Counted from the first letter of the whole stretch, positions 3,067 to 45,196 are shown. The stretch: 63,991 nt of DNA, filler included, from Basidiobolus ranarum (GCA_040143965.1; 42 parts of 42 records of this genome joined end to end with filler, not necessarily neighbours in it); one strand, 5' to 3'. Notes: generated by a model not told the origin, from the sequence alone. A program made the numbers and translations.

Positions 3067-3172
3067 TTCCAAAATGGTAAATAACATCGTGCCGGATAGT
3101 GCCCAATCATGCCAATTTGTGCTGGCACACTTTTTAGCTGGCCTGATCTGGCTCAATAAAATGGAACAAGTC
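3067..3172 (-). mobile_element. Subterminal region of a second CACTA-like family (GTGCC/GGCAC motifs)
   Basis: Reverse complement of ~50125-50232. Confidence 0.55.
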
Positions 3173-4388: not shown

Positions 4389-4499
4389 CCCTAACAGAAA
4401 TTTGAGGATTGTTATTGTATGAAAACCATCACAATTTTAATCCATTTGGTGTTGACCGCTTACTTCCCGGAATAAAATTGTCAAGTTTGATTTTATTTT
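4389..4499 (+). mobile_element. CACTA-like element terminus type B (CCCTAACAGAAAT), inserted in a transposase copy of its own family
   Basis: Same terminal sequence at 11511, 28442, 60466 and reversed at 31521. Confidence 0.85.
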
Positions 4500-4599
4500 N
4501 NNNNNNNNNNNNNNNNNNNNNNNNNNNNNNNNNNNNNNNNNNNTTAATTAATTAANNNNNNNNNNNNNNNNNNNNNNNNNNNNNNNNNNNNNNNNNNNN

Positions 4600-6132: not shown

Positions 6133-6290
6133 TGTATGAATACCGCCAAGATACCGTCAAGAAACCGCCGTCACATCATCAAAATCCCTGGCAGAATGCA
6201 AGCCAACGATATTGTGACGGTTCTCTGACGGTTTTGCTATTTCGGAGGGTGGATCCGATCCGGATCAAATCGATTTTATTTTTGTTAGGG
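6133..6290 (-). mobile_element. CACTA-like element terminus type A (CCCTAACAAAAAT on - strand), least-decayed copy
   Basis: Ends ...TTTTTGTTAGGG; ACCGTCA/TGACGGT inverted motifs and GGATCCGATCCGGATC intact; 11 CpG counted in 158 bp. Confidence 0.9.
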
Positions 6291-6449
6291 GTATATCCCA
6301 TCAATATCATCAGCTGATACTGAGATGTTGTCACAGATGAGTCATCAGGAGATTTACAAGCTATTTCTGGTAAAGAATGGCCGTTTTGGTTTATTATAAG
6401 CTATTTCTAAGCAATTTCATTGCACCAAGTTTACCATCTGAAAATTTCA

Positions 6450-6720
6450 ATGCCATTTCAAAAGCATTGAAAATCCAAATCAAGATTGGCTTCCAAGCAA
6501 AAGCCTGCTGGCACAAAAGGAAAACAAAGTCAGCAAGAACACAGGACTTAATTGATGAGCAGTCCAGCAATCCACTATCCACTTTGGAAGGTATTAACAT
6601 GCTAGAAACTAACTCAAGTAATGATGAAGCATTAATCTGGTAATAGTGCAATTCAAATGATTGTAATTCTCCAATTATGTTGTCAATAAATAGTTGAGCA
6701 AATTTCAATTGAAACACCAT
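6450..6720 (+). pseudogene. Accessory ORF2 5' fragment
   Basis: ATGCCATTTCAAAAG..., homologous to 32162 onward; interrupted by LTR G2. Confidence 0.7.
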
Positions 6721-7277
6721 TGTAGTTGTTTTAGGGTGTAAGCAGCAACTACAACAGCAATATCCTAAGGGTCTTGTGAGGTGTTCAAAGGGTGCAATAG
6801 CCACGGTTGAAAAGCTCTGGGATGTACTGTGGTATGGGTCTGTCCCTTGCCTCTTGGGTCTTTGTGAAAGGGAATCAAGCCTCTAGAAATGTCTCAGGAC
6901 TGATGAACCACAATGCAGTGTGCAGCTTTCTGTTGAATAATATGCTGGTGCTTGACAAAAGAATATACTAGCTTCAATGTCCTTTGAGAATGAACAGATC
7001 AAAAGAGTATATCCAATCAAAAACAACGGTAAACTCAGTCAGCAGGGTTTTGACTCAGGATGAACTGGTAGTGATTTATGTAAGGATATGAAAAGTTCCT
7101 TGGCTATGCAGACAAAGCTAGGGAAAAAAATATAAAGTATCAGAAATATAATATCTACCAGTCAGTACTTTCTTTGAGCCAGTCAAGTCATTTCTAGTCA
7201 CACAGTAGCCTGTAACTGTCTCTAGTAGTATCTCCTGAGCTTCCTCTTATAGGGCTTGTAAGCAGTGATGAAAATAA
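6721..7277 (+). repeat. LTR-like repeat G2
   Basis: TG start, second copy at 1237; followed by nested C2 and C3 LTRs. Confidence 0.6.
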
Positions 7278-11510: not shown

Positions 11511-12159
11511 CCCTAACAGAAACTTGAGGATTGTTATCATAGGAAAACCATCACAATTTTAATCCATTTGGGATTGACTGTTTACTTACCATTGTAAAAC
11601 TATCCAGTTAGATTTGATTTTGATCAAATTTTTCAGTTTCAGAAGTGAAATTTCAAGATCTCGCAAAATAGTTGCGCATGATTGGCTACAATCTTGGAGA
11701 TCTATGGATCAACACATGTGTGAAAAATGTAACTCAAATTTTACAAAATTACCACTTGCATGCTAATTTGTCACCTTCAAAATCCCTAGTCTCTTTGATA
11801 TATTGTCCTGAATATTTTTAAAGAGTTCTTCATACCTAAGGTTTTGCTAATACCCAACACAAGTTTGTATCAATATCTCCATCAAAGCCCACCATTATAT
11901 TAATGCTTTTGGGCAAGATTCTGCACAGTTTCCAAAATGTTAAACCACTCATCATCAGAGCAAGTGATGGCAGCTCTGCCATTCAGAGTTGGTTGATTTG
12001 CTGGTTTTCCTATGAAATTTCTACTTTCATGTGCCCAAGCAATTTTGGGTTGTTGTGTAGGTTTAATGGTCCAACACATATTCTGCTCTGCTAGATTGTC
12101 ACAGTGATGTTCATATGTATGGTGTGGGATTGATTGAAGTCCCATATGAGAATGGACAG
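11511..12159 (+). mobile_element. CACTA-like terminus type B plus internally deleted ORF2 (- strand)
   Basis: TIR; ORF2 C-terminus joined at ~11905 to the mid-ORF2 SDDEWFNILETV region. Confidence 0.85.
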
Positions 12160-13690: not shown

Positions 13691-14289
13691 NNNNNNNNNN
13701 NNNNNNNNNNNNNNNNNNNNNNNNNNNNNNNNNNTTAATTAATTAANNNNNNNNNNNNNNNNNNNNNNNNNNNNNNNNNNNNNNNNNNNNGGTCTGATAA
13801 ATCCTGGCACAATGGAACAAGTCCATTGTCCAGAAATAAAGCATTTATACTTTTTGGTGGAAATACAGAAAACTAACACTGGGGTTGTGTTCAGAACATC
13901 TGTGGGAGTAAAATGAGCTATTTTTGGGGCAATTTAGACAACTTTTGAAAAAACCATCAGCATATTGAAGATTAGGATATAGTGGCCTGGGATAAAAAGT
14001 AACATACAGTAACTAGTCAATAATTGACCTAGTTGTTAAGTTAAACCAAGTCATACCCAGAGACATGTGGAGTTATTCTCATTGAAGCCTGTAGGACTGT
14101 CTGATCAAAGAAAATCTATTTTGTACAAAGACTCCCCACAAGCCAAAGAAGCAACCAATGGATTCTTAGTCATATTCACAATGAAAACAAGTGGCCAGTT
14201 GCCAAAGCAGTATGTATGGCCAGCTAAACTTGGTATAATGCAATTGCTTAGCACCAGCTTATAATAAATGAAAAGTGCCATCCAAAACT

Positions 14290-14725
14290 GGACATATCTT
14301 GTAATACCCTAATGAGTCAATTATGACACTATCTCTGAATCAGTTGATGCTATTGATGAGATATACCCAAAGTACCACATTGTAGGAGGTGTTCTGTTTC
14401 TACAATAATCTTCACATGTCCCATTACAAGAATTTAAAGAAGCCCTGCTAGCATTGTCACAAATTGTTGTGTTGTAAATGCTAGATGCTTCATGGAAAAT
14501 TAATTGCAAGTATGGTCACTGTATAAAATCACATGCTGCACAAAGCCTGGTGAATATCAATAGTAATAAGTGCACAGTATTGACATTAGTTTTGCCTGCT
14601 AAGTTTACTAACTGTACTTTACCTTATAGTTTTGGTAAACCTGCTGAAAGTCATGATACCATGGAGTTACCACAGTTCTATGACCAGAATGATGTAGTTA
14701 GGTAATCAACTTTGGACCAACCAGT
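14290..14725 (+). pseudogene. Diverged homolog of the CACTA-like internal ORF at 46150-46850 (putative transposase N-terminal region)
   Basis: FKEALL.LSQI, AAQSLV..NSNKC..LVLP.KFTNC aligns codon-by-codon with 46170-46550. Confidence 0.5.
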
Positions 14726-15221
14726 CCCTAACAAAAATAAAATCAATTTGTTCCGGATTGGATCCACCCTCCAAAAGAGCAAAACTGTGAGAGAACCATC
14801 ACAATATTGGTAGCTTGCATTCTTCCAGGGATTTTGATGATGTGACAGCGGTTCTTGACAGTACTTTGACAGTATTCATACATGTTAAAATATTGATCCT
14901 CAAATTGGCATGTGTTATCTAATATCCGGCAATTTTTGCAAAAATGTAATATTTGAATGGCAAAGCACTGGGTTTACTGCTGAAGGAATTCAATTTTAAT
15001 ATGCATGCCTTTATTTAGACATTTTAGGCTTTGTATTCCAGCTATACTGAGAATCAAAAAATACAAGAATCTTGCTGTGTTTAGTCTCTACATATGCACA
15101 TACTGGACTTATTAGACATAACTCAACAACATCAATATGCTTTACCAGCAAACTAACGGTGGAAAAATTGCCAAACATCTGAAATTTTGAATAGCACTGA
15201 CACTTGGCAAATAGCTGACTC
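14726..15221 (+). mobile_element. CACTA-like terminus type A with transposase C-terminus on - strand
   Basis: TIR; interior is the reverse complement of 24215-24396 and 18382-18740. Confidence 0.88.
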
Positions 15222-16851: not shown

Positions 16852-16961
16852 TCCTTGTCCAGTCTTGTCTTGTCTTGTCTTGTGGTCTACACCCAAGTAC
16901 TCTCCTGCCTTCTAGCCTCTTGTTGTTGTTCCCAGTCCTTGTCCAGTTCCTTATTGTGACA
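16852..16961 (+). repeat. Gypsy G1 LTR 3' end (..ATTGTGACA) inserted within a gypsy gag
   Basis: No PBS follows; gag-coding sequence continues directly. Confidence 0.8.
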
Positions 16962-18381: not shown

Positions 18382-18740
18382 TGTGCATATGTAGAGACTA
18401 AACACAATGAGATTCTTGTATTTTTTGATTCTCATTATGGCTGGAATACAAAGCCTAAAATATCTAAATAAAGGCATGCATATTAATTCGAACTCCTACA
18501 GCAGTAAACCCAGTAATTTGCCATTAAAAAATTATATTTTTGCTAAAATTGCTAGATATTGAATAACGCATGTCAAATTTGAGGATCAATATTTTAACAT
18601 GTATGAATACCGCCAAGATACCATATCATCAAAATCCATGGCAGAATGCAAGCCAACAATATTGTGAAGATTCTCTGATGGTTTTGCTATTTGGGAGGGT
18701 GGATCCGATCCGGATCAAATCGATTTTATTTTTGTTAGGG
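18382..18740 (+). mobile_element. Transposase C-terminus (stop 18469-18471) and terminus type A
   Basis: Overlaps 24334-24396; reads ..DSHYGWNTKPKISK*; ends GTTAGGG. Confidence 0.88.
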
Positions 18741-18780
18741 TAGGTTTAAGCAAAATACAAAATGATTAGTCTAGTGGGAA

Positions 18781-19810
18781 TGTTGAAATTAGACAAAGAG
18801 CAACTTATTATTTAGTAGTTTGTTTATTCATATTCTAATTCATTAGTTTTCAACTCTGTCATTCAAAAGCACGGGTTTATTGCACTAATTGAGAGAAATA
18901 TCAATTAGATCACTTTTACCAATTATTTCTATTCTCTCAAATCTTTTCCAAATCACCTCAAAATCTCAGCCATGCTTAACAGGCATGTTTGTTATAATAT
19001 AAGCACATGCAATAGTCCTATTTCATAGTACACTATAAATAGGACATTTTCAATTTGTAAAATCTAAATGTTGAATTCACAAATACAAATCCTGTCCAAA
19101 ACACTTCCAAATCCCCAATACACTTTTATCATGCAGAAATAGGATTTTTGCTAAGAAGCTAAAATTGGAGCATGCAAAGCAAGCAAGCATAGAATGGGAT
19201 CATCTATTAGTGTTTGCCCTATCAGTAGCCATTAGAGGAGCCTCAGAAGCATTTTACATTGCTTCAGGAGCCTCCCAGCATATGTCAAACCAGAGAGATT
19301 GGTTTTCCAGCTTACAGCCCATCCATAAAAGGAAAGTCTACCTAGGTGATGATTATGCACTATATGCAGTTGGTAAGGGAACAGTTATGCTCAATTTAGA
19401 CCAAAATTCTGCTACAACATTTGCAAAACTGGATGATGTACTCTATATAGCAAATAAAGGCAAGAATCTACACTCAGTAAGCCAAGCAACAACTCAAGGA
19501 CTAAATTTTGCACTCAACCAGACTGGATGCACTATCACATATCAGAATAGAACCAATTTAGCTACTGGGATCAAAACCCAAAGCTTTTACAAAGGAAAAT
19601 TGACAAATTGCATTCTAAGCATGCAACCTTAGCCAAAACTGATGAAATAAGCTGTCAAACATGGCATAGAAGAATAGGCCATATTGGGTAGCTACAACTG
19701 ATGCAAATGAACATAAATCAACTTGTTTCAGGCTTAGAAATACAAAATATCACTAAATTGGAACTGTGGAAGGTTGCAGATATGAAAAATATGATGGACA
19801 GCTATTTTCA
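18781..19810 (+). mobile_element. Copia C1 3' LTR (18781-19131) inserted into another C1 gag-protease
   Basis: LTR then CRNRIFAKKLK and FYIASGASQHM. Confidence 0.85.
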
Positions 19811-19910
19811 NNNNNNNNNNNNNNNNNNNNNNNNNNNNNNNNNNNNNNNNNNNNTTAATTAATTAANNNNNNNNNNNNNNNNNNNNNNNNNNNNNNNNNN
19901 NNNNNNNNNN

Positions 19911-21125
19911 CCTGAGAGCAATCTACTAAGACAGCAATCCATTACAATGTGTACCCCCACAAGACCAAGACAACGGGTGTTTGAGAGAGATAGTGAAGCT
20001 CTTACTGAGCTTGAAGAAGCCACAACAGTCAAACACAAACCTCAAGGTAGACAATATGCTCCAATGCATTCTGCCATGCAACAGAGGTCACAGCGGCCAG
20101 TCAAAAGAGATGAAGCTTCTACCATGGTTGAAGAGGCAAGAACTGCCAAATGTGAACCTCAAGGTATACAACTTGCTCCAACATGTACTGGAATGCAACC
20201 ATGGCAATGGCCAGTCAAAAGAGATGAAGCTTCCACTGTGGTTGAAGAAGCAATAACCACAGAACACAAACCACAAGGTAGACAACTTGCTCCAACATGT
20301 ACTGCCATGCAACCACGGCCATGGCCAGTCAAAAGAGATGAAGCTTCTACCATGGTTGAAGAGGCAAGAACTGCTGAACACAAACCACAAGGTAGACAAC
20401 TTGCTCCAACACGTACTGTCATGCAAGCATGGTCAAGCCAGTTGAAAGAGATGAAGATTCCACCTTGATTGAAGAAGCAATAACTGTCAAGCACAAGCCT
20501 CAAGGAAGATGACTTGCTCAAACAAGTTCCACCATGCAACAGAGGTCATGGCAACCGGTTGAAAGAGATGAAGCTTCTATCATGGTTGAAGAAGCAATAA
20601 CTGTCAAGCATGAACATCAAGTGAGACATTACGGGTTGACATGTAGAGCTGCACACCAGCAGCAATGGTTCGTTGACCCATTAAGAGAAGGCTTCACATC
20701 TGAAGAAGAGACTGTAGATACAAACAAACCACAAACTAGAGTGGATGAGCCAATGAAATTGTCATATATCAAAAAAATCAATGATAGCCTATTAATACAA
20801 GCAATTTCACTACAATCAAATGAAAAATGTCTGTCAATAAAAACTTCCGCAGCCATATTGGCTTGATATGGCTCAATCCGTTCACATTTTCACCCAATTA
20901 GAAGCTGACATAATTGAATAAATAATTTACTGATCTAAAAATTATGAATCATGTGATCCTGATCACTACTATCAGACTGTACATTGATCCATCATTGAGT
21001 GCTGTGATTTGTGACTGGTGTGCCAAAACTACTGGTGTTTGGTAACGCAGGAGCTGTTGTGCGCAATTGAAAATCAGGATACTAGTTTAGTGAGGGACAA
21101 ATGATTGGCCTAAAAACATGTGAAT
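19911..21125 (+). pseudogene. Decayed hypothetical repeat protein, 5'-truncated
   Basis: ORF pieces 19947-20468 and 20534-20866 separated by a 1-bp deletion; possible C-terminal DWCAKTTGVW segment; CpG-poor. Confidence 0.45.
19950..20680 (+). repeat. Coding tandem repeat, ~6 units of 113-120 bp (38-40 aa, PVKRDEASTxVEEA...)
   Basis: Unit starts at ~19980, 20100, 20214, 20328, 20441, 20558. Confidence 0.9.
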
Positions 21126-21439
21126 GTCTTGGTTATATATTTGATTGGGTAAGTTACAGTATAAATTGTTTATTGTTACACATTCAGTAATTCTTAAGTT
21201 TCAAATTAGGGGATGAACTTACTTTGTCAGTTACCCAAAATTGTAATTTGGCAATACTATATTGGATAACTTGGTATGGGCTGGCACAATATCTCCAATA
21301 AAATCTTTGTGTCCAATTGTGGTGGGATAGTGCCATATTNNNNNNNNNNNNNNNNNNNNNNNNNNNNNNNNNNNNNNNNNNNNTTAATTAATTAANNNNN
21401 NNNNNNNNNNNNNNNNNNNNNNNNNNNNNNNNNNNNNNN

Positions 21440-22096
21440 AGCAATATGGTTAAGAAAACTCTTAACAGATTTGGGTTATTCTCAAAATTCACCAACTACA
21501 ATATTTCAAGATAATCAAAGTTGTATCAAATTAGCTAAAAATCCCATGTTGCATAATAGAAGCAAGCATATAGATATTAAGCATCACTTCATTAGAGAGA
21601 CTATAGAGAATAAGTTTATTGACTTAATTTATTGTTCTACAGAAGACATGATTGCTGATATATTAACCAAACCATTAGCTAGACAGAAATTTGAGAAATT
21701 TAGACCTTTATTAGGATTAGTTTATAAGACTATTTAGTTGAGGGAGAGTGTTGAAACTAGCATTGCCAAAACACCTATATGGTCATATATAGTTTAGTAC
21801 TTAGTTATCTTATAATTCACCAAGATATCATCAATTATTCTCAATTGTAACTTACTAATTATATTTTTACCAACTTAAAAGTTATTAGATATATAGTTTT
21901 TTCAAACTTGTGCTAGAAGCCCCAAACTTTGCACACATGTTCCTGGGACCTTCTGTAACACAATATACATGTTGGTTTGTTTACATCTTGTCAAAACTAT
22001 AAGTATCAACTTTCTACTCAATAAATCAATAAGTGAAAACCACCAATTTCTCTAATTCTCCAAGCCACCTCCAACAGACTCCCAAATACTTTAACA
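21440..22096 (+). mobile_element. Copia family C3 RNase H end and 3' LTR (21749-22096)
   Basis: QDNQSCI, RSKHIDIKHHF; PPT gagggagag; TGTTGAAAC...TTTAACA. Confidence 0.9.
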
Positions 22097-22113
22097 CTTT
22101 AACAGCTAGCTTG

Positions 22114-22229
22114 GGGCTCATAACCTAATAAAAGTGCTTTAGGGATTTGGATATGTTTTGGACAAGATTTGGATTTGTGGATTAGACCCTTGGGCTTTAT
22201 TTAATTGAATATGTCCTATTTATAGTTTA
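22114..22229 (-). repeat. C1 LTR 3' end with PBS GGTTATGAGCCC (22114-22125)
   Basis: Reverse complement of ~50915-51033. Confidence 0.8.
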
Positions 22230-22868
22230 TGTTGGATAATTATTCTTTATTTAACATCATAGTTAACTTTAGTTATGTTACATATATCAGAAACAGAAAG
22301 CAATGTATCTATAGCCCCAATATTTCAAATAGGAATTTCTCTATATCTTTATAACAAGTATGTCTTATTACCCCCACTTATCTATTGCAACTTATTACAC
22401 AAACTCCAGAATATCTCAAAGAATTGATTTACTCTTCTACTATATAAGTCACCCTATAATCTTAAGAATAAAGTAACTAAAACACACTATGATAAGTTGC
22501 TTCTAATACTCAAAGTGTACCCCCATTATGTCAAGATCCTCCAACATGGTAGCAGCTAGTGAATTAGAGTCTTCTTCCCAAATGGAGATTATTAATATTA
22601 TGACATTCAATGGGGAAGATTTCAATGAATGAAAATTCATGATGCAACTTGTGCTTGAAGGGAAACATGTCTGGGAAGTAGTTCAGCCAGATGAAGAAGA
22701 AAGTACAGATTCTGACACTGAAACAAAGAAGCCAACATGTAAACAAGCCAGGGCAGTCTTCAAAGAAAAAGACAGATTGGCATTTAGGGAAATATGTCTA
22801 AGACTGGGATCACAACAACTTATGCTAGTCAGAGATGCTGACTCTGCCAAGAATGCATGGGAAATCCT
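22230..22868 (+). mobile_element. Copia family C4 5' LTR (22230-22546), PBS TGGTAGCAG, gag start
   Basis: TGTTGGA...TCCAACA termini; MQLVLEGKHVWEVV..SAKNAWE. Confidence 0.85.
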
Positions 22869-22968
22869 NNNNNNNNNNNNNNNNNNNNNNNNNNNNNNNN
22901 NNNNNNNNNNNNTTAATTAATTAANNNNNNNNNNNNNNNNNNNNNNNNNNNNNNNNNNNNNNNNNNNN

Positions 22969-24396
22969 GGCACAATGCACTATCTTGCTGTACATTTTGT
23001 CAAATCAATGGAATTTACTCTATCAGGCAGATGCATTATTACTATCCAAATGCAACACTAAACTCCATGATTTTACCATCAAGAGCCTGGTCAGAATTCA
23101 ACATGATCACTGATATTAATTTACCAAATAGTCAGTCTAACATCAAACTTGGTATTAGCCGTAAGCCTAAGATTATATTGCTAAAGGGAATCAGCTGGAG
23201 CCAGAGCTTCCCATTAGGCACCATGCACTTACTATTTAATAACATTCTGATACTACTTACTCAGCTATATAGTGAAAAATTCAATATGATTGAGCCATTT
23301 GAGATAGGATCAAAGTTTGATTTAATTGGGAAAATGCTTGAAAACATTAAGATACCATCATATTCTACCGGGACTCCCATCAACATCCACTCATCTAGGT
23401 GTTTATTCAAATGCAAAGACTGGAAGTATTCAATTTGTATATATTCAAGAGGAATTTCGAAAAGATTTCTGCCTGATAAGTATTAGCAATAATGGGAGTT
23501 GTTTGTTGATGTTGCTAATATATTCTTATGGCATCAACTCACATTGGCAGATCTCAGGCAGATATAGTGACTGTGCAAAAATTTTGTGATTGGAGACAAA
23601 AAACTTTATTACAGGTTTGAAGAAGATATACTGAATCTATGCCAGTAATCAATACATTCCCTGCTGCATTGTTCACAATGCTTAGAGATTATAGGCCCTT
23701 GCCATACATTCTGGCAGTTCCCAATGGAGCGCACCTGTAGTGAAATGATGCTCCGTGTGAAATTGTCAGTATTACCTCATGCTAATCCAGTTGACAATGT
23801 ATCAGCAAAATCAGTGATGGATGTAATGCAATGGGTTAAGCAGACTCCAGAGTTATTAACCTTCTAACAAAGGGCTCTTTTCAATGTGCTCACAGGTTTT
23901 TGCATTGTTTGAGCACAATGACAGCCACAACGCCCAATCCATGGACACAGAGTAAGTACCTCTATAATCTGGACTAATCTGTTTGTGTAATAACCTGATG
24001 GTATTTTTAGGAAAGCTGCAAGACAGACTTCTTGGTGAGATAGATGGAGATAGACAGTATTATTGTTATAGCCATGGGGTAACCTATTCATGCAATGACA
24101 CATCTACTTGTGGCAGGACATTTGTTGACTGCAAGTTAGGGATATATTGGCTGAATTCTTTATGGAAATTTGCCAAAATTCAAGAGTTTATTCTTATTGT
24201 GAATAGTAACAAGAGTCAGCTATTTGCCAAATGTCAGTGCTATTCAAAACTTCAGATATTTAGCAATTTTTCCACCATTAGTTTGCTGGTAGAGCATATT
24301 GATGTTGTTGAGTAATGTCTAATCAGTCAAGTATGTGCATATGTAGAAACTAAACACAACAAGATTCTTGTATTTTTTGATTCTCATTATGGCTGG
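22969..24396 (+). pseudogene. CACTA/CMC transposase, core to C-terminal domain, with putative intron 23952-24010
   Basis: FPLGTMHLLFNN, FKCKDWK, IHSLLH, WQFPMER; spliced join to ..KFAKIQEFILI..LFAKCQCY. Confidence 0.85.
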
Positions 24397-24496
24397 NNNN
24401 NNNNNNNNNNNNNNNNNNNNNNNNNNNNNNNNNNNNNNNNTTAATTAATTAANNNNNNNNNNNNNNNNNNNNNNNNNNNNNNNNNNNNNNNNNNNN

Positions 24497-25923
24497 GGCA
24501 GGTTAATATACTCTGGAGTCTCCTTAACCCATTGCATTACATCCATCACTGATTTTGCTGATACATTGTTAATCAGATTAGCATACAGTAATACTGACGA
24601 TTTCACATATATCATCATTTCATCACAGGTGCGCTCCATTGGGAACTCCCAGAAAGTATAGCAAGGGCCTATAATCTCTAAGCATTGTGAAAGATGTGGC
24701 AGGCAATGTATTCAATACCAGCATAGATTTAGTCTATCTTCCTTAAACCTGTAATAAAGTTTTTCATATCCAATTACAAAATCTTTGCACAGTTGCTGTA
24801 TCTGCCTGAGATCTGCCAATGTGAGTTGATGCCATACAAATGTAGTAACAATATCCACAAACAACCCCCAATGTTACCAATAGTTATCAGGCAGAAATCT
24901 TTTCAAAATTCCACTTGAATATATACAAATCTAATACTTCCAGTCTTTGCATTTGAACAAACACCTGGATGAGTGGATAGTGATGGGAGTCCTGGTAAAA
25001 TATGATGGTATCTTGACATTTTCAAACATTTTCCCAATTGATTCAAACTTTGATCCTGTCTCAAATGGCTTATTCATATTGAATATTTCACTATATAGCT
25101 GAGTAAGTAGTATTGGAATGTTGTTGAATAGTAAGTGCATGGTGCCTAATGGGAATCTCTGGCTCCAGCTGCTCCCCTTTAGCAATATAATCTTAGGCTT
25201 ACGGCTAATACCAAGTTTGATGTTAGACTGCTATTTGGTGAATTGATATCAGTGATCATGTTGAAATCTGACCGGGCTCTTGATGGTAAAATCATGGAGT
25301 TTAGCATTGTACTTGAATAGTAGTAATGCATATGCATGTTAGAGTAAACTCCATTGATTTGACAAAATCTATAGCAAGATAGTGAATTGTGCCCGCAAAA
25401 ACCTCCAAGTTTACTGATGGCAGGAGTGTCACCAATACATACAATGATACTAGCTTTAATAAGATATTCACCGATCTGAATCCCATTAGATAACTGTTCA
25501 AATTCCACAATCAAAGGCTCCAAGAAGCTATTTATAAGCACTGGTGATTTAGGTCCAGATATGATACATAGTATCAAAATATTATGACTCTTATACCATT
25601 CAGAAGGAGAATATTTAAGTTGATCAAAATTATTGGCTAGCAAGCCTTTCCAATGGTATATTTGTTTAGTGAGAAACCATCCAGAGCCAATGCAAATGCA
25701 TGATCATACATGTTCTCAAACAAACCTTGACTTTTTGGTTTCTGGTAGTGATATTCATCAAGTATATTGGTAATACCTTCAGCTTTATGGTTAGTACTTT
25801 GGTATTGGATCAATGATGTATATTTGGGCAATTTCATCACAACTTTAAGATAGGGATTCAACGGAATGTAACCCAAATATGAATGATATTTACAGCATTC
25901 AGTGATTGCTAATTGTGTGAAAA
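24497..25923 (-). pseudogene. CACTA/CMC transposase, full DDE core, decayed
   Basis: ALALDGF (D1), IGDTPA (D2), CYRFC, GTMH, WEFPMER (E). Confidence 0.9.
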
Positions 25924-26023
25924 NNNNNNNNNNNNNNNNNNNNNNNNNNNNNNNNNNNNNNNNNNNNTTAATTAATTAANNNNNNNNNNNNNNNNNNNNN
26001 NNNNNNNNNNNNNNNNNNNNNNN

Positions 26024-26750
26024 ATAGATTTTTCAAACTTGTGCTAGAAGCCCCAAACTTTGCACACATGTTTCTGGGACCTTCCTTAACATATTCTACA
26101 CATTAGTTTGTTTACATCTTGACAAAACTATAAATGTCAACTTTCTACTCAATAAATAAATAAGTGAAAACCACCAATTCCTCTAATTCTCCAAACCACC
26201 TCCAACAGGCTCCCAAATACTTTAACACTTTTAAGTCTTGCAGTTGGATTCTTTGCAATACTAACTATTATTGAAATTAGCATTGCGTAAGCACCTATAA
26301 AGTCATGGATAGCTTAGTATTTAGTTATTTCATATTGAACCTAGATATCACCTCAAGAGGGATTTACTTAGAATACTAACACCAAATTAGTAGTTCTCAG
26401 ACATAGAGATTTTTCAAACTTGTGCTAGAAACCCCAAACTCTGCACACATGTTCCGGGGACTTTCCGCAATGCATTATACATGTGAGTTTGCTATAATGT
26501 GACAAAACTGTAAATGTCAGCTTTCAACTCAATAAATCAATAAGTGAAAACCATCAATTTCTCTAATTCTCCAAGCCACTTCCAACAGCCTTCCAAATAC
26601 TTTAACACTTGACATGTTTTATACATATCCTAGCTCCTATCCTGACAAAACTATAAATGTCCAGTTTCTAACCAATAAATTAACATGTGAGAACCATCAA
26701 TTCTTCTAGTTTTCCAAGATACTCCCAATAGACTTTCAAGATTCTTCAAC
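26024..26750 (+). repeat. Cluster of C3-type copia LTRs (26024-26227, 26269-26607, diverged piece to ~26750)
   Basis: Match 21749-22096. Confidence 0.8.
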
Positions 26751-27107
26751 AAGTTTAAGCATATGCAATGAATGTAAATCAACTGAGCAGCATCCAAGTC
26801 TTGAAATTTCTGGCTTGGTTTCATATTTTGCCATATTTATATATTATTTGTGAAATAGCTTTCTCTTGAATATCAATAAATGAAACACTCCTCAGTTTCA
26901 GCATCAGTATTCTCATCATTGTTGTTAAAATATTTCAGTTCTCTTGTGATGGTTTGAGAGATAAGTTTATTGTGAGTACCAGAGACATATGCTGTATAGC
27001 TAGGACTAGCCTAGTTTTATATTTATGAGTAATTACAAATTAGAAGATTAATGGTAGTAACTAAATTAGTGTAATCTTGATTTTGAAGACTTTTAACTTA
27101 GCAGTTC

Positions 27108-27450
27108 TGTTGGAGGACATTGACACAATGGGGATAGACTTTGTATATTAGAGGCAACTTATGGTAATGTTTTAGTTACTTTATTCTTAAGAGAATATGG
27201 TGACTTATATGGTAGAGAAGTAAATCACTTATTTGAGATATTCAAGAGTTGGTGTAATAAGATAAAATAGATAAGCAGGGGTAATAAGACATACTTGTTA
27301 CACAGAAAAAGAGATATTTCTAATTAGAATATAGGGGCTATAAATGTTAAAGTATTTGGGAGCCTGTTGGAAGTGGTTTGGAGAATTAGAGGAATTGGTG
27401 GTTTTCACTTATTGATTTATTGAGTAGAAAGTTGACATTTATAGTTTTGT
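27108..27450 (-). repeat. C4 LTR (27108-27343) interrupted by C3 LTR
   Basis: Reverse complements of ~22310-22546 and ~21990-22096. Confidence 0.8.
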
Positions 27451-27550
27451 NNNNNNNNNNNNNNNNNNNNNNNNNNNNNNNNNNNNNNNNNNNNTTAATT
27501 AATTAANNNNNNNNNNNNNNNNNNNNNNNNNNNNNNNNNNNNNNNNNNNN

Positions 27551-28441
27551 AGGTCTAAAGATTAAGATTATATGTGCTGACAATGGAGGGGAATATACCT
27601 CAAGACTCTTCTCTAACTTCTGCTCATCACATGGGATAAAACAGCAGACTACAGTGCCATACTCTCCACAGAAGAATGGAGTAGCACAATGTGCAAACAG
27701 ATCAATAATGGAAATGGCAAGATCAATGCTTCATGATCAAGATTTATCAAAACAGTTCTGGGCTGAAACGGTTGCAGCTGCAGTATATATTAGGAATAGA
27801 TATCTGTCTAGGTCTCTGTAAACTATGACACTTTATCAAGCCTGGTTTAGAAGTAAACCTGATGTGGCTAAGCCCAGGATTTTTGGAAGTACCATATATG
27901 CAATGATTCCAGACCAGAAGATCAAAACTATACTAAAAAAGCCAAAAATATCTTTTTTTGGGATATTTTGATGGGAAAAAGGGTACAGGCTATATGATAC
28001 TGAAAATAAAGGGCTAATCAAGTCTAGGGATATAGAATTTGTGGAAGAGGAGAAATTCTAAATCAAAACAATCCAGGATCAAGAAAAACATCCAAAAATG
28101 ATCAAATTCTACTTTCTCTCACCAGATCTTGATCAGTGAGGAAAACATTGAAAATCTCTCACCTGCAGTCTTCTCAACCAAGTCTGAGGTAATTTCATTG
28201 TGTAAGTTGGTACCAGAAGTTGAAGTGTCAATTTCACATCTTAGGAGATCCAATTATATGCGATCTCCACCTGATTACTACTCTCACACCACCCAAAAGG
28301 AGCCTAGTGCTAATTTAGCCTTTTCTGATGAGCCCAAATCAGTACAGCAGGCTATGGAGATTACCAACAAGAGGTTTTGGAGTGCTGCAATGGCAGAGGA
28401 GTATTAGTCATTTGTAAATAACCAAGCTTGGACTTTGGTTC
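27551..28441 (+). mobile_element. Copia C2 integrase to RT linker
   Basis: DNGGEY, PYSPQKNGVA, FWAETV, KGYRLYD, DEPKSVQQAM. Confidence 0.9.
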
Positions 28442-28976
28442 CCCTAACAGAAATTTGAGGATTGTTATTGTAGGAAAACCATCACAATTTTAATCCGTTT
28501 GGGATTGAACATTTACTTGCCATCATAAAATCATCAAGTTAGATTTGATTTTATTCAATTTTACAGTTTTAGGAGTGAAATTTCAAGATCTCACAGAATA
28601 TTTGCAAATGATTGGCTAAAATCTCAGAGAACTTTGGATCAACACATGTGCAAAAAATGTAACTCAAATTTTATACAATTAACACTTGAATGCTAATTTG
28701 TGACCTTCAAAATCCCTAGTCTCTTTGATATATTCTCCTGAATATTTTTATAGATTTCTTCATATCCAAGGTGTAGCTCATACCCAACACAAGTTTGTGT
28801 CAATATCTCCATCAAAGCCCACCATTGCATTAATGTTGCTGCATCAACATTCTTCCAGCTATCTGGTGGATACCCTGCAATATTGTGCCACTCTGTATTA
28901 AGTTCTTCCCAGATATCTGCATGGTCAATACCAGACTGAATGTCACGTTGAATGTTCTTCTTCTGAAGCCACTTTA
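28442..28976 (+). mobile_element. CACTA-like terminus type B and ORF2 C-terminus (- strand)
   Basis: TIR; reverse complement of ~30990-31521. Confidence 0.88.
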
Positions 28977-29076
28977 NNNNNNNNNNNNNNNNNNNNNNNN
29001 NNNNNNNNNNNNNNNNNNNNTTAATTAATTAANNNNNNNNNNNNNNNNNNNNNNNNNNNNNNNNNNNNNNNNNNNN

Positions 29077-30502
29077 AGCCTTTTCTGATGAGCCCAAATC
29101 AGTACAGGAGGCTATGGAGAGTCCCAACACAAAGTTTTGGAGTGCTGCAATGGTAGAGGAGTATCAGTTATCATAGATAACCAAACTTGGACTTTAGTTA
29201 AGTACCAGATTACCAAAAATCAATAGGATGCAAATGAGTGTTTAAAGTTAAACAGCAAGCTGATGGATCTGTAGAGAGAGGTAAAGCCAGACATGTGGCT
29301 AAAGAATACTGTCAAATGGAAGCAGTGGACTGCCATGAAACTTTTGCTCCTCTAGCAAAGTTTAATTCCATCAGAACCATACTAGCAGTAGCAACAAATC
29401 ACAGCTTAAAAATCAATCAAATGGATATTGAAACTGCTTTTTTGAATGGGGACTTGGAAGAGGATATATTCATGGATCAACCAGATGGTTTTGTGGATCC
29501 TGAGCAACCTGATGATGTGTGTAAGCTACAAGAATCACTTTATGGACTTGAACAATCACCCAGGGCCTGGTATACTAAGATAGCAACATTCTTGGAATCA
29601 CTTGATTTCCAAAATAGTATGGCAGGTTTTGGGATCTATTTTAAGATAGATAAGGCCAGTAAGGCAATACTTGCCTTGTATGTAGAAGATCTGATTATAG
29701 CTACCAATAATGATACAGCTCTCAGGAAGACCAAAAGAGATCTTTCAGTCCAATTCAAGATGCATGATATAGGTAACCTTGCATCTTTTTTAGGTCAGCA
29801 GATTGATACAGATATATTGAGCAACTCTAATCCTCTGAATGAATCTAAATACATCTCAGACATTTTCAGACGTTACAGGATGGAGAATTGCAAGCCAGTA
29901 GCAACTCCCATGGATCCAGGTGTGAAACTAGTCTAAAATCCCATCAAAAATGATGAAAATTGGCCAAATATGGCTCAAAATATGTCATTTGAAGGCCCTG
30001 AGTTCCCTTATCAATCTATTGTAGGTAGTTTGATCTATACTATGACTGAAACCTGGCCAGATATCTTTTTTGCAATGGGAGTAGTCAGCCAACATATGCA
30101 AAACCCAGGATCTGAGCATTATGCAGCAGTTAAGCGGATTTTCAGATATTTGAAGGGGATAATTGTTCTGGCAATAAGATACACATATTCTTATAAGAAA
30201 AGGATCTAATTGGGTTTAGTGATGCAGATTGGGGACTTAATATTGAGGACAGAGGATCTATCACTGGATATACCTTTCTCTATAGTGAAGCAGCCATATC
30301 TTGGAATAGCAAGAAGCAACCCACCGTAGTACTTTCAACAACTGAAGCAGAACACATGGCAGCATCACAGACAATATAGGCAGTTATATGGTTAAGGAAG
30401 CTGTTCAAAGACTTGGGCATTATTTAAAGTTCACCCACCATAACTTTCAAGGATAATCAAAGTTGTATTTCTTTAGCTAAATATCCCAAATTTCATGCTA
30501 GA
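29077..30502 (+). mobile_element. Copia C2 reverse transcriptase-RNase H
   Basis: KARHVAK, ETFAP, QMDIETAFLNG, LYGLEQSP, LYVEDL, SDADWG. Confidence 0.95.
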
Positions 30503-30602
30503 NNNNNNNNNNNNNNNNNNNNNNNNNNNNNNNNNNNNNNNNNNNNTTAATTAATTAANNNNNNNNNNNNNNNNNNNNNNNNNNNNNNNNNNNNNNNNNN
30601 NN

Positions 30603-31270
30603 TTAGGCTCTACTGTCCCACTTACCAAATTCTTCACACCATTACAAAGATTTGCAAATCCAGAGTCAGATGTACTGGCAAAAAAGCTTAATTTCATCAT
30701 GGAACCGGGTATACCAGCTGGAAGAGTGCTAAATTTGGAAGTTTATCCAACACCTGGCACCTCTCAGCAAGCCAAAACACCAGCAAATCAACTCTTGGCT
30801 CTCCAACCTCTACTTGTACTTTTCAAAGTATTGAAATTAGCCCCAAACTTAAAGGCAAACAAAAAGCCACACAAACACCACAAAGAACCCTTAGTAGTGT
30901 CACACTACAAGGACATACAAAAATAGTCAAAGTGCTTGAGGAGTATTTTCAAAAGTATGAGGGGAAAAATACAGTGCAAGTATGCAGAAAGTGGCTTAAG
31001 AAGAAGAACATTCAACTTGACATTCAGTCTGGGGTTGACTGTGCAGATATCTGGGAAGACCTTAATACAGAGTGGCACAATATTGCAAGGTATCTGCCTG
31101 ATAGCTGCAAGAATGTTGATTCAGCAATGTTAATACAATAGTGGGCTTTGATGGAGATATTGACACAAATTTGTGTTGGGTATGAGCTAAACCTTGGGTA
31201 TGAAGAACTCTATAAAAATATTCAGGAGAATATATCAAATAGACTAGGGATTTTGAAGGTGACAAATTAG
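30603..31270 (+). pseudogene. Accessory ORF2 C-terminal third
   Basis: Overlaps 33249-33446; ends ..DIWEDLNTEWHNI..WALMEILTQICVGYELNLGYEELYKNIQENISNRLGILKVTN*. Confidence 0.75.
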
Positions 31271-31521
31271 TGTTCAAGTGGTAATTGTGTAAAATTTGAG
31301 TTATGTTTTTTGCACCTGTGTTGATCCATAGTTCTCTGAGATTGTAGCCAATCATGTGTAACTATTTTGCAAGATCTTATAATTTCACTCCTGACACTGA
31401 AAAAATTGATTAAAATCAAATCTAACTTCACAATTTATGATGATAAGTAAACAGTCAATCCCAAATGGATTAAAATTGTGATGGTTTTCCTATGATAACA
31501 ATCCTCAAATTTCAGTTATGG
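31271..31521 (-). mobile_element. Subterminal region and terminus type B, inserted in copia integrase
   Basis: Reverse complement of 11511-11765; ends GTTATGG. Confidence 0.85.
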
Positions 31522-32027: not shown

Positions 32028-32161
32028 NNNNNNNNNNNNNNNNNNNNNNNNNNNNNNNNNNNNNNNNNNNNTTAATTAATTAANNNNNNNNNNNNNNNNN
32101 NNNNNNNNNNNNNNNNNNNNNNNNNNNTTCATTACACCAAGTTTACCATCTGAAAATTTCA

Positions 32162-33446
32162 ATGCCATTCAAAAAGCGTTCAAAATCTAAGTCAAAATTG
32201 GCTTCCAAGCCAAAGCCTGCTGGCACAAAAGGAAAAAAACCAGCCAGAACAGAGGACTTAATTGATGAGCAGTCTAGCAATCCACTATCCACTTTGGAAG
32301 GCATTAACATGCCGGAAACTAACTCAAGTAATGATGAAGCATTAATCAACTTACCAGATGTGTTCCTTTCCAGCAATAGTGCAAGCAAAGAGACTGTAAT
32401 CCCCCAATAACATAGTAAATCAATATTTGAGCAAAGTTCAACCAAAACACCATTAGGACCATCTACTTCCAAAGTAGCTACTTTGCCCACTGTTGAACAA
32501 CCCTCATTAGAAAATTTGGATTAAATTATTACAACAAGGGAATCACAGGCAAAACACCAAAATGAATTGTATGCAATCATGAGTAAAAACTACAAAGTTG
32601 CTATGCAGGCCATGACAAGCAATAACACCCCAATATTGCAACTAATGGAGTGTTTTGAAGCAACTAGTCAAAAGTTAGAGAGTCACTCAAAAATGATATA
32701 AGACCTTGAGAATGCTGTACTTGAGCTACAGCAACATGGTGCTCCCTCTGTCCATTCTCATACAGGATTTCAATCAATCCTACACTATACATATGAATGT
32801 CAATGTGACAATCTAGTAGAGCAGAATATGTGTTGGACCATTAAGCCTACACAATGACCCAAAATTGCTTGAGCACATGAAAGTAGAAATCTCATATGAA
32901 AACCGGCACCAAAAGACTCTGAATTTCTGAGCTGCTGTCACTTGCTCTGATGATGAGTGGTTTAACATTTTGGAAACTGTGTGGAATCTTGCCCAAAATC
33001 ACCTGGATTTGAGTCAATTGTGGAAAACCCAAAACCCAGGTGTTACTCTAAAGGTTGTTGACTTATTTCATGTGGTTTATCCTGGGTTTTTGTAAGCAAA
33101 TGGCTATTGGGCTAGTATAGGCCTATTCATGAAACATCTCAAATATGTACACAATTAATGACTAGGAAAATAAAGAAAAGCAGCTAAGGAAGTACTCAAG
33201 GAGCAGGAAGTTAGTAAACCCAAGGGAAAAGCAAAGGAGCCAGTCAGTTTAGGCTCAACTGTCCTACCTACCAAATTCTTCATACCATTATGAAGATCTG
33301 CATTTCCAGAGTCATGTATGCTGGAAAAATGCTTAATTTCACCATGGAACTGGGTACACCAGTTGGAAGAGTGGTAAATTTGGAAGTTTATCCAACACCT
33401 GGCACCTCCCAACAAGCCAAAACTATGGCAAATAAAACTCATGGCA
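32162..33446 (+). pseudogene. Accessory ORF2, N-terminal ~430 codons
   Basis: Colinear with 58066-59437(-) and 1-1017(-); stops mostly at CAA/CGA/TGG-derived codons; truncated by a C2 LTR at 33447. Confidence 0.78.
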
Positions 33447-33652
33447 GTTGAAGTTTATTGTCTTTATCATATTTATTATCTCTATCTTTATACACCTAAC
33501 TACTTCATATATCACATATAAGTTAGTTAACATTACTTAGTCAAATATCACTNNNNNNNNNNNNNNNNNNNNNNNNNNNNNNNNNNNNNNNNNNNNTTAA
33601 TTAATTAANNNNNNNNNNNNNNNNNNNNNNNNNNNNNNNNNNNNNNNNNNNN

Positions 33653-36702: not shown

Positions 36703-37109
36703 ATGTTGCGCATGAAGAGAGCGTGGTAGGCACGAGCACAGACAACCCTGACCTTAATACGATACTTGGGATCCCAACCAGCAAAACCATCGAAGACATA
36801 AAGACGCTCACGAGTGTTGAGGTAGTCGACAGCTCTCTCATGGTTGATACTGAAGACACGATCTTCCAATGGAATGTTTACAGGGCCCCACCAGATATCA
36901 CCGCTGGTGGACTTCTCTTCAACAATGCGCTTGTCATTGGGGCTTCTTCCAGTCTTCTTACCAGATGAAGTAATGATAGCACCAGCAGAGCTGAGATAAG
37001 TGCCTTTCTCATATTGTAAAGCATGCTCATAGAGCTTGGCTACAGGAAGATTTCTTAGCACAGGTTTGTTGGTATCAATACCAGAAGTGGAGTTTAGTGC
37101 GAAAGCCAT
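36703..37109 (-). CDS. PCK1: Phosphoenolpyruvate carboxykinase (ATP), N-terminal part of downstream copy
   Basis: LYEHAL, SGKKTGRSPNDKRIV, DIWWGPVN, YVFDGFAGWDPKYRIKVRVVCARAYHALFMRN; runs off contig. Confidence 0.95.
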
Positions 37110-37809
37110 GTTTGTGTGATCTATGGATGATAGGAGTAGTGGTGTGATCGAAGTCAACCGGCTCCCATGCTATTTATTCGTTCCCCGGTTACACATTGAC
37201 CTCAAAGCCTCATGTCGGACTTGACAGCAGTATGCCAACTTTGGGGACATGTTTCAACTGGCCTCAATCCGTAAATGGCCGATTACTGATGATGTATACT
37301 AACTTGGTCCTAATTAGGGTTGTTTCATATTTATGAACTAAAAATATACATCCGTTGAAGTAGAAAATTTTATATTAGGTTTTTAGATTCAGTGTTACTA
37401 GAAATCTTCCATTTTAATAAAATTGAAAACAGTGCGGGAATTGAACAATATTTCAACTTCTTAATTTAGAAAACCACACGAGCAATTTTCTGGATTAAAA
37501 TTGGATGATCCCTACGTTAATTACGAGAAAATTAGTTTTATTAGATTTTCTAAACTGCCGAAATAATTAGTCAACATCAGTGATCGAGCTTGTGGCATAA
37601 AAGGACACCATACTTGGTCAGGACAAACAATATAAAAAAAGGTTGACGATGGCATTTGTTAAATCTAATTTATATATGGATACTTTTATTGTATATAACG
37701 ATTCAAGTGAGGAATATGGAAGATGTGATTGTGTACAAGAAATGAGTGCAAGTAAATGCCAGTAAGTAAAATTCAATGCTAATGGAATGAGTTAAGTAAC
37801 ATGTGATCT

Positions 37810-38127
37810 TCACAATTGAGGTCCAGCAGCAATGATTTCTGGAGTAGCTTGATCGGCGTACAACTGGAAGTTCTCGTTGAAAAGACCAGCGAGCTTCTCA
37901 ACTGTGGCTACATATGACTCCTTGGTACCTTTCCAGGCTGCTGAGGGGTTCAATACCTCATTAGGAACGTTACTGACTGCCTTAGGGATCTCGATGTTGA
38001 AAATGGGGTAATTTTCAAACTCGGCTTGAGCAAGTTCACCGTTATGGATGGCATCAATAATAGCACGAGAGTACTTCAATGAGATACGAGAACCAACACC
38101 ATAAGCACCTCCGTTCCATCCAGTGTT
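37810..38127 (-). CDS. PCK1: Phosphoenolpyruvate carboxykinase (ATP), C-terminal part of upstream copy
   Basis: NTGWNGGAYGVGSRISLKYSRAIIDAIHNG...LAGLFNENF...AAGPQL*. Confidence 0.95.
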   Translation of the reverse strand, partial: NTGWNGGAYGVGSRISLKYSRAIIDAIHNGELAQAEFENYPIFNIEIPKAVSNVPNEVLNPSAAWKGTKESYVATVEKLAGLFNENFQLYADQATPEIIAAGPQL

Positions 38128-38227: not shown

Positions 38228-38345
38228 CACATCATCAAAATCCCTGGCAGAATGCAAGCCAACAATATTGTGATGGTTCTCTGATGGTTTTGCTATTTTG
38301 GAGGGTGGATCTGATCCGGATCAAATCAATTTTATTTTGTTAGGG
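38228..38345 (-). mobile_element. CACTA-like terminus type A inserted in own-family transposase
   Basis: Ends TTTTGTTAGGG; mostly CpG-decayed. Confidence 0.87.
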
Positions 38346-39220
38346 GTCAGTCCAATATCAAACTTAGTTTTAGCCACAAGACTAAGATTATATTGCTAAA
38401 GGTGATTGGCTGGGGCCAGAGCTTTCCATTAGGAACTATGCACTCACTATTCAACAAAATTTCAATACTGCTTACTTAGCTATATAGTGGAATATTCAAT
38501 ATGAATGAGCCATTCAAGATAGTATACAAGTTTGAATCAATTGGCAAAATGCTTGAAAATACCAAAATACCATCATATTTTACCAGGACTCCCATCAATA
38601 AACACTCATCTAGTTATTTATTCAATTGCAAAGACTGGAAGTATTGGACTTAAACATATTTAAGTAGAATCTTGGAAAGATTTTTGCCCTATAAGCATTG
38701 ACAACATAGGGAGTTGTTTGTGGATATTGTTAATATATTCTTATGGCATCAACTCACATAGGCAGATCTCAGGCAGATACAGCAACTTTGCTAAGATTTG
38801 GTAATTGATATGACAAACATTATTACAGGTTTACAGAAGAGAGACTAAATATGTGCCAGTATTCAACATATTCCCTGCTGCTTCTTTTAGAATGCTTATA
38901 GATTATAGGCCCTGGCTAAACATTGAGGGAGCTCCCAATGAGGCATACCTGCAATGAAATAATGCTCTATGTGAAATTGTCAGTATTACTATATGCTCAT
39001 ATGATTAACAATGTATGGGTAAATTTGGTGAAAGATGAAATGCAATGAGTTAAGGAGACTCCAGAGTATATTAACCTTCCAACAAAGGGCTCTTTTTAAT
39101 GAGCTCACAGGTTTTTGCATTGTTTGAGCACAATAACAGCAATAAAGCCCAATGCATGGGCACAGAGTAAGTACCTCTATAGTTTGGACTAATTTGTTTG
39201 TGTGTTAACCTGACAGAATT
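38346..39220 (+). pseudogene. CACTA/CMC transposase fragment
   Basis: Colinear with ~23130-24000, including GTMH and the GTAAGT donor. Confidence 0.85.
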
Positions 39221-39226
39221 TATATT

Positions 39227-39652
39227 GAATCTCACCCAAAAACACCTTAATTTAAAACAATTGTGGAAATATTAAAGACTATGGGTTGTTCTAAAGGTTC
39301 TTGACTTATTTCATGTAGAATATCATGGGTTTTTGCATTTAAATCAATTATGGGCAAGTATAGGCCTAATCATAAAACATCTTCAAGAGATATGCCATTA
39401 TTGACTTCAAAAAGAAAGAAAAGCATAATAAGCAGTACTCAAGGAGCAGTAAGTTTGTGAACCTAAGGGTAAAGCAAAGGAGCCAGTGATTTTTGGCTCA
39501 ACTATCCCACCTGCCAACTTCTTCATTCCATTATAAAGACCAATTTTCCTGAGTTGGACATACCAGCAGATATACTGTTGAAAGGCTTGATTTTTCCATT
39601 TAACTCAGAAAAATAGCTTGAAGAGTTCAAAAGTTAGTAGTATATACAACAC
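39227..39652 (+). pseudogene. Diverged ORF2 middle fragment
   Basis: LKVLDLFHVEYHGFL..WASIGLIIKHLQ..PKGKAKEPV. Confidence 0.65.
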
Positions 39653-44756: not shown

Positions 44757-45196
44757 CCCTACAAAAATAAAATTGATTTGATCTGGATTGATCCACCCTT
44801 CTTAATTGCAAAACCATCAGAGAACCATCACAATGATGGTGGCTTGCATTCTGCCAGGGATCTTGATGGTGAGACCACAGCTTCTTGATGGTCTTTTGAT
44901 GGTATTCTTACATGTTAATATATTAATCCTCATATAGGACATGCATTATTTAATTTCTGGCAATTTTTGCAAAAATCTAATTTTTGAATGGCAAATTACC
45001 AAGTTTACTGCTGCAAGACTTCGAATTAATATGCATGCCTTTATTTAGATGTTTTAGGCTTTGTATTCCAGCCATAATGAGAATCAAAAAATACAAGAAT
45101 CTTGATGTGTTTTGTCTCTACATATGCACATACTTCACTGATCAGATATAATGCAATAGCAACAATATGCTTAACCAGCAAACTAATGGTAGAAAA
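44757..45196 (+). mobile_element. CACTA-like terminus type A, CpG-decayed
   Basis: CCCTACAAAAATAAAATTG.. colinear with 14726-15165. Confidence 0.85.

Follow-up and report, generated by a model that had tools for sequence, protein, structure and literature searches.

Decayed copies of a CCCTA-ended CMC-type transposon with two probably divergent genes in contigs of Basidiobolus ranarum

We analysed a stretch of 63,991 bases from Basidiobolus ranarum (GCA_040143965.1), referred to here as the window, in which pieces of one DNA transposon family recur. The window (GC content 30–39%) is made up of 42 unrelated contigs of 1418–1433 bp each, ordered by size and separated by spacers of the form N44-TTAATTAATTAA-N44, and neighbourhood and order within it therefore carry no information. 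Pieces of the family were found on 22 of the 42 contigs, amounting to 17,632 of 59,891 bases (29%). A first-pass annotation had placed the element at 18382–31521 and cautioned that these coordinates span separate contigs; they cover nine of them. The contigs were compared by all-against-all BLASTN and the copies then mapped by a script onto a chain, giving a composite of 5195 bp. All results were drawn from the window sequence and from protein databases. They make it probable that the contigs contain copies, dead and nested in one another, of a single high-copy cut-and-paste transposon of the CMC (Tnp2/Transposase_21) superfamily, ∼5.2 kb long and with two divergent genes, one for the transposase and one, termed ORF2 (open reading frame 2), for a second protein.

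The element has two kinds of end, type A and type B. All 13 of the CCCTAACA-type ends annotated earlier are present, eight of type A and five of type B, four of the 13 being degenerate. The A ends read CCCTAACAAAAATAAAATCGATTTGATCCGGATC... and are exact at 6290, 10498, 12336, 14726 and 18740, with degenerate forms at 38345 (a one-base deletion), 42515 (GTCTAAC...) and 44757 (CCCTACAAA...). The B ends read CCCTAACAGAAATTTGAGGATTGTTATTG... and are exact at 4389, 28442 and 60466, with one mismatch at 11511 and a degenerate form at 31521 (CCATAACTGAAAT). At all 13 positions the likeness between copies breaks off directly outside the CCCTA. Because the copies stop being alike immediately beyond the first C, the ends are true element boundaries. 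CCCTAAC is present at nine of the junctions and degenerate forms at the other four; CACTA is present at none. Where up to one mismatch was allowed, CCCTAACARAAAT had nine matches in the window, compared to a mean of 0.40 and a maximum of three in shuffled sequences (0 of 100 shuffles reached nine). The A and B consensus sequences are equal at 12 of their first 13 bases and not beyond, in keeping with the imperfect 13-bp terminal inverted repeat (TIR) that had been proposed; the repeat reads 5′-CCCTAACA(A/G)AAAT. Read as the 3′ ends of the element, all 13 (e.g. 28442 and 18740) finish with ...GTTAGGG, which contains one unit of the TTAGGG telomere repeat. This likeness is probably a coincidence, since it concerns six bases only and CCC- or CACTA-like ends are usual in the superfamily.

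Both types of end also carry a subterminal box. It had been described as AACC(G/A)TCACAAT at A and B alike; this is correct for the B ends, where AACCATCACAAT is found in five of five, and incorrect for the A ends, which read AACC(G/A)TCAGAGAA. The form shared by the two, AAACCRTCASA, has 11 exact matches in the window where 0.17 would be expected. Ten of the 13 ends have an exact match, never two within one end, and the remaining match is at one site elsewhere. The box lies 34 bases inward at B and 56 bases inward at A.

The transposase gene was recognized from its domain and its motifs. Pfam Transposase_21 matched two window ORFs above the curated cut-off, 3867–4355(+) with an E-value of 2.7e-14 and 25182–25703(−) with an E-value of 3.6e-9. 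The motifs LDGF, GDTPA and CxxC (C-YRF-C) can be read in that order in 24500–25918(−), and H-SLL-H (HxxxH) followed by FPMER in 23649–23864(+); they were read directly in the sequence. The CMC identity that the first-pass annotation had based on the DG/GDxPA/CxxC/HxxxH/FPMER signature is thus borne out by both the Pfam matches and the motif order. The order D, D, C(2)C, H(3)H, E is also that given for the CMCT clade in the part of Kojima 2025 (PMC12730594) that covers it. In a word search for longer proteins, the only intact relative in the protein collection was P0001, which has 698 amino acids and is 71% identical to the query window ORF. P0001 matches Transposase_21 with an E-value of 1.9e-16 and has the CMC motifs in the same order as the window ORFs.

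When P0001 was compared to the window with tblastn, it was colinear on eight contigs at 47–87% identity, covering codons 1–142 and 181–697. Codons 1–45 lie in 14225–14725(+), which is cut by a nested A end; codons 13–142 in 45973–46860(+); codons 181–653, including the Pfam match and the first three motifs, in 24500–25918(−); and codons 357–697 at 22971–23992 (77% identity), within a copy that continues into 3′ non-coding DNA (22969–24396(+), composite 3456–4883). Codons 209–380, again with a Transposase_21 match, lie in 3920–4388(+) and are cut by a nested B end at 4389–4499; codons 411–697 lie at 38346–39224(+); and codons 230–618 belong to a decayed copy at 48912–50067(+). Finally, the region 59551–60950(+) contains codons 376–627 with a deletion (59551–60195), a piece of a gypsy gag and a B end (60466–60950) that carries a short internal duplication.

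P0001 and two window ORFs also matched Pfam DUF1258 (PF06869), with E-values of 3.1e-10, 1e-9 and 1.9e-5. These matches are weaker than those to Transposase_21 and cover the same stretch, and they may reflect only the relatedness of the two models; DUF1258 is a Caenorhabditis family that we take to be tied to Mirage-type elements. The nearest named transposase outside the family is a Ceratobasidium protein at 32% identity, and a PDB sequence search with P0001 gave nothing at E <0.1. Two metagenome scans were discounted: the 588 pattern matches obtained with P0001 included no relative, and the A-end pattern found one 1536-bp contig (23% GC) sharing only 39 bases, a chance match.

In the composite, the B end is at position 1, ORF2 (∼580 codons) at ∼258–2006 in antisense, a spacer of ∼390 bp at ∼2010–2393 and the transposase gene (698 codons) at 2394–4482, with ∼710 bp of 3′ non-coding DNA between the transposase and the A end at 5195. 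The B ends that feed the chain are those at 28442, 31521, 11511, 60466 and 4389. The first of these, with the adjoining 534 bp of the element, lies inside copia at 28442–28975(+) and has the ORF2 C-terminus on the minus strand (28696–28974). The degenerate end at 31521 begins a 919-bp piece (30603–31521(−)) in which the C-terminal part of ORF2 reads on the plus strand toward the end. This piece overlaps two others: 32128–33445(−) (197 bp, 85%), which extends from the ORF2 start (MPFKK, ∼32162, reading +) to mid-gene (composite 2040–723) and meets a copia long terminal repeat (LTR) at 33446; and 58067–59437(+) (282 bp, 86%; composite 637–2006), which bridges both ORF2 contigs and has a 239-codon frame with two stops at 58440–59156(−). 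Next in the chain is 1–1232(+) (composite 981–2221), whose minus strand carries the 5′ half of ORF2 and which also includes 215 bp of the spacer. The link from here to 45973–46860 is 306 bp at 79%, and 14225–14701 also matches that contig over 483 bp at 77%.

On the transposase side, the order of the chain is codons 13–142, a gap of 38 codons, 24500–25918 and then 22969–24396, which stops 312 bp short of the A end. An overlap of this last piece with 18382–18740(+), the final 359 bp and A terminus of another copy (composite 4821–5195, with copia from 18741), had been noted before; it is real but short, with 60 of 63 bases identical. Better overlaps with the end of 22969–24396 are provided by 14726–15221(−), an A terminus with 496 bp inward to the transposase 3′ non-coding DNA (184 bp, 92.9%), and by 44757–45196 (129 bp, 88.4%). 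Altogether, three contigs connect the A end with the transposase 3′ non-coding DNA and four connect the B end with the 3′ part of ORF2. The directions proposed at the outset, transposase toward A and ORF2 toward B, agree with both the tblastn results for P0001 and the composite mapping. P0001 itself is encoded on a contig of 5233 bp, compared to 5195 bp for the composite, which gives weak support for the length.

The layout of the two genes is seen on contig 45848–47270, which holds both gene starts ∼390 bp apart on opposite strands. The ORF2 N-terminus (...SIPFIKHSKSKSKLASKPKPAG..., 45961–46088) is on the minus strand and transposase codons 13–142 (46474–46860) are on the plus strand. A second contig, 13791–15221, has the same spacer followed by transposase codons 1–45 and is only 76.6% identical to the first. 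As the two copies of the spacer are only 76.6% alike, the adjacency of the genes must be old and have been copied along with the family. CCCTAAC was not found on either strand of the spacer, which speaks against a pair of separate elements placed end to end. The element of at least 5 kb originally proposed, in which ORF2 reads out toward B and the transposase toward A, is therefore supported by single contigs (45973–46860 and 14225–14725) as well as by the chain of overlapping copies, and we judge the reconstruction likely to be right.

It could instead be that A and B are the ends of two elements or subfamilies, one with the transposase and one with ORF2, each having an unseen second end, and that the composite is a chimera of nested copies. 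This would fit with the absence of a one-piece copy, with the heavy nesting (4 of the 13 ends lie within further copies of this family) and with A and B ends that are alike for only 13 bases. However, every CCCTAACA-type junction in the window is either A or B, with no third end type seen, and the 5′ regions of ORF2 and the transposase are adjacent in both of the diverged copies with no terminal motif between them. An ORF2 element without a transposase would, moreover, have to hold 12 of 13 terminal bases in common with the transposase element. We regard the existence of two separate elements as improbable.

Several observations weigh against a single element with divergent genes. The region 38228–39539(+) comprises a nested A end (38228–38345), transposase codons 411–697 and then, 17 bp past the stop codon, mid-ORF2 sequence in the same orientation (39227–39539). 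Such a joint would be expected if the true layout were co-oriented, with ORF2 downstream of the transposase in the manner of plant CACTA elements, and if the head-to-head contigs were rearrangements. The joint enters ORF2 in mid-gene (composite 1184), however, and not at its start. In addition, the ORF2 part is 77% and the transposase part 82% like the other copies, and the higher divergence of the ORF2 part suggests that a truncated younger copy lies within an older one. The transposase 3′ region runs to the A end on three contigs, and the ORF2 start faces the spacer and the transposase start on two to four contigs. A co-oriented layout is thus very improbable.

The remaining observations on this side concern the reconstruction more generally. 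The sequence 45848–45962 sets transposase codons 442–477 directly before the ORF2 start region. No copy is in one piece, each contig being ∼1.4 kb, and the copies in the chain are only 75–93% alike, which may leave room for a chimeric path. The window lacks codons 143–180 of the transposase (38 codons), for which P0001 is the only bridge. A target-site duplication (TSD) could not be read, as the two ends of an insertion never occur together on one contig; TA is directly outside 5 of the 13 ends, which gives no more than a hint. An 8-mer scan of 400 bp per composite end revealed no arrays of subterminal repeats and only a few two-copy words.

Further points of this kind come from ORF2. Its low-depth consensus splits into five ORF pieces (456–2246 of the 2500-base B side), so that ∼580 codons is an estimate and the lack of introns is uncertain. 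No relative of ORF2 was found in Pfam, by PDB sequence search or in the Atlas. Pfam searches with the ORF2 pieces and relatives gave only sub-threshold matches of coiled-coil type, the PDB sequence search with an ORF2 profile gave nothing at E <0.1, and the Atlas search with P0003, an ORF2 relative, gave a best feature score of 0.87 and a best template modelling (TM) score of 0.31, which are leads only and name no family. A word search for longer proteins with the ORF2 N-terminus found nothing. The AlphaFold2 prediction for P0003 (seven rows) was poor outside one helix, with a mean predicted local distance difference test (pLDDT) score of 56.4 and a predicted TM (pTM) score of 0.26. The predicted helix covers residues 12–74, with block-mean pLDDT values of 85–94 for residues 21–70, 57 for residues 11–20 and 64 for residues 71–80.

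A HMMER search of 1.84 billion representatives with 58440–59156(−), its two stops treated as X, returned five proteins. Three of these are NCBI hypothetical proteins from Basidiobolus ranarum, which fits the origin of the window. The other two are 35% and 42% identical and show a conserved core, which consists, in order, of a coiled-coil stretch, GFQ..PH..E.H..NL..QN, IAWA.E.R.L.GKP.NQKTLN and a block ending YPGF.QA.G.W..IGLF...KNV. To judge by this conservation, ORF2 is a real gene family, because two lineages at 35–42% identity have retained the core. An internal duplication of ORF2 (two NQKTLN...C.D.W units) was considered and found to be unsupported (BLASTP E-values of 0.79–0.87).

We also considered that ORF2 is a captured host gene or a passenger and not a transposition factor. 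ORF2 is without similarity to TnpA or to any family, those of its relatives that carry a name are all hypothetical proteins from this fungus, and the regions near the ends yielded no repeated binding sites, all of which would suit a passenger. Against this, all five relatives have the appearance of copies or pieces of one kind of sequence and lie on short contigs of 1–2.6 kb, and the retention of ORF2 by two diverged lineages fits a gene that travels with the element. Furthermore, CACTA elements as a rule carry a second gene of unknown family, according to the sections on these elements in Buchmann et al. 2014 (PMC4158355). A passenger origin of ORF2 is accordingly thought unlikely.

If the element with two divergent genes is accepted, the transposase would bind the shared 13-bp ends, excise the element and reinsert it, and the ∼390-bp spacer would act as a two-way promoter for both genes. 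ORF2, with its basic N-terminus, predicted long helix and conserved helical C-terminal core, may be an accessory protein, probably oligomeric, that binds DNA or the transposase. It may fill the role that TnpA plays for maize En/Spm; this TnpA-like role is an analogy, not a result.

All of the copies in the window are dead and have decayed neutrally. They are 74–93% alike in the all-against-all BLASTN comparison, and the longest open frames are 174 of 698 codons for the transposase and 149 codons for ORF2. In both genes, the first, second and third codon positions take equal shares of the differences between copies, and a non-coding control behaves likewise. This even spread indicates neutral decay and says nothing on the past function of ORF2. 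A preference for insertion into the family's own copies was rejected, as the number of self-nested ends is explained by random insertion with the family filling 29% of the window.

Two further pieces illustrate how the copies are broken up. At 6133–6721(+), an A end (6133–6290) is nested in the spacer and ORF2 5′ region of another copy (6290–6721). At 11511–12159(+), a B end (composite 1–392) is joined to composite 1167–1420, giving an internal-deletion copy that lies in a copia RNase H sequence. This is the single case of an end (11510/11511) within the RNase H region of copia pol, the other copia hits being elsewhere. The same copia boundary, at 33446–33552 and 45197–45573, adjoins the CMC element at composite 723 and 4755. 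This boundary, equivalent to 61431 in contig 61056–62473, is probably the start of the LTR, so insertion has gone both ways, copia into CMC copies and CMC copies into copia. Another repeat, at 1233–1433 and 6717–6917 with the edge CA(C/T)T(A/G)TAGTTGTTTTAGGGTG, borders on the element at two internal sites, composite 2221 and 1714. It resembles the terminus of some other transposon, which would be CACTA-like or else an LTR that begins with TG.

The window also contains host genes and unrelated repeats. Pieces of an ATP-dependent phosphoenolpyruvate carboxykinase, apparently split by an intron, lie at 36705–38127(−) (Pfam PEPCK_ATP, E-values of 5e-38 and 5.4e-19), and an open frame of 332 codons at 47796–48791(+) encodes a DAO-type FAD (flavin adenine dinucleotide) oxidoreductase (E-value of 4.1e-23). 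The annotated span 18382–31521 also includes, at 20011–20607, a tandem repeat with a 114-bp unit (5.2 copies, 79% matches) and several open frames, which has no relation to the transposon. A unit of ∼110 bp is found at 16852–16961, 53251–53360, 56751–56848 and 57547–57884, with 94–98% identity across three contigs; it has four occurrences on contig 56501–57919, there at 86–95%, and one of its frames encodes CGLHPSTLLPSSLLLLFPVLVQFLIVT. The unit probably belongs to an LTR or a satellite.

We then compared the element to known systems. The sections of DeMarco et al. 2006 (PMC1636069) on TRC elements describe Transposase_21 transposons of animals and fungi with TIRs that start CCC and a 2-bp TSD, and state that the TIRs of the fungal members could not be defined. 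Transposase_21 together with CCC-starting TIRs is also the combination found here. By the same account, the Tribolium castaneum TRC begins CCCTAGTAG, so that its TIR starts CCCTAG where the present one starts CCCTAA. Its 5.2 kb, and the ∼4.7 kb of SmTRC1 from Schistosoma mansoni, are close to the ∼5.2 kb found here, and in both systems copies insert into retrotransposons. In contrast, SmTRC1 is described as having 54-bp TIRs and proteins made by alternative splicing of one transcription unit, whereas here the TIR is 13 bp and ORF2 is on the opposite strand.

As described by Buchmann et al. (PMC4158355), a complete CACTA element encodes a transposase together with an ORF2 whose function is unknown. 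On that description and the matching parts of PMC1636069, maize En/Spm and plant CACTA elements resemble the present element in their Tnp2-type DDE transposase, TIRs of ∼13 bp and poorly conserved second gene. They differ in having CACTA ends, a 3-bp TSD and subterminal repeat arrays, whereas here there are CCCTA ends and one shared box. The tnpA and tnpD products of En/Spm come from one transcription unit, while the genes here lie head to head in the sequence. The CACTA...TAGTG termini, 10–20-bp subterminal repeat arrays and co-oriented genes of strict plant EnSpm/CACTA elements were thus not found; the Transposase_21 domain and the catalytic motif order of the CMC superfamily are present. 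Members of the superfamily also have short TIRs, as seen here, and a TSD of 2–5 bp.

Fungal EnSpm/Plavaka elements of the CMCT clade are likewise multi-gene DNA transposons in the account of Kojima 2025 (PMC12730594). Their ends as given there are CAC..GTG, TGT..ACA or CATCA..TGATG, and many carry TET/JBP genes, unlike the element here. Oppositely oriented genes are reported in the same source for fungal multi-gene DNA transposons of the IS3EU type. A head-to-head CMC layout was not found in shallow word searches of open papers. The first-pass annotation did not recognise the layout for this superfamily; this holds in so far as no printed head-to-head CMC element was found, although CCC ends, two genes and opposite orientation are each known separately. 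The element is therefore a new decayed family in an established superfamily and not a new kind of element; its gene arrangement departs modestly from the usual one, and its second gene is an orphan.

Basidiobolus genomes are noted for ‘huge expansions of CMC-EnSpm’ in the relevant part of Muszewska et al. 2017 (PMC5751038). It is possible, and we put this forward only tentatively, that the family is an undescribed CMC branch confined to Basidiobolus-type fungi and that its accessory protein belongs to a new coiled-coil family, TnpA-like in function, unrelated to TnpA in sequence and sharing a two-way promoter with the transposase. A hint that some copies may still be live comes from P0001, whose 698-codon ORF is intact in a public assembly. 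No long-standing question is opened by these findings; ORF2 is an orphan candidate for an accessory protein with a TnpA-like role. Defined ends are now given for a fungal CCC-type CMC element, which the fungal TRCs as presented by DeMarco et al. 2006 (PMC1636069) lacked. The main use lies in annotation: a model with ends, both genes and length would allow masking of the fragmented genome and would let those hypothetical proteins that are fragments of ORF2 or the transposase be recognized as such.

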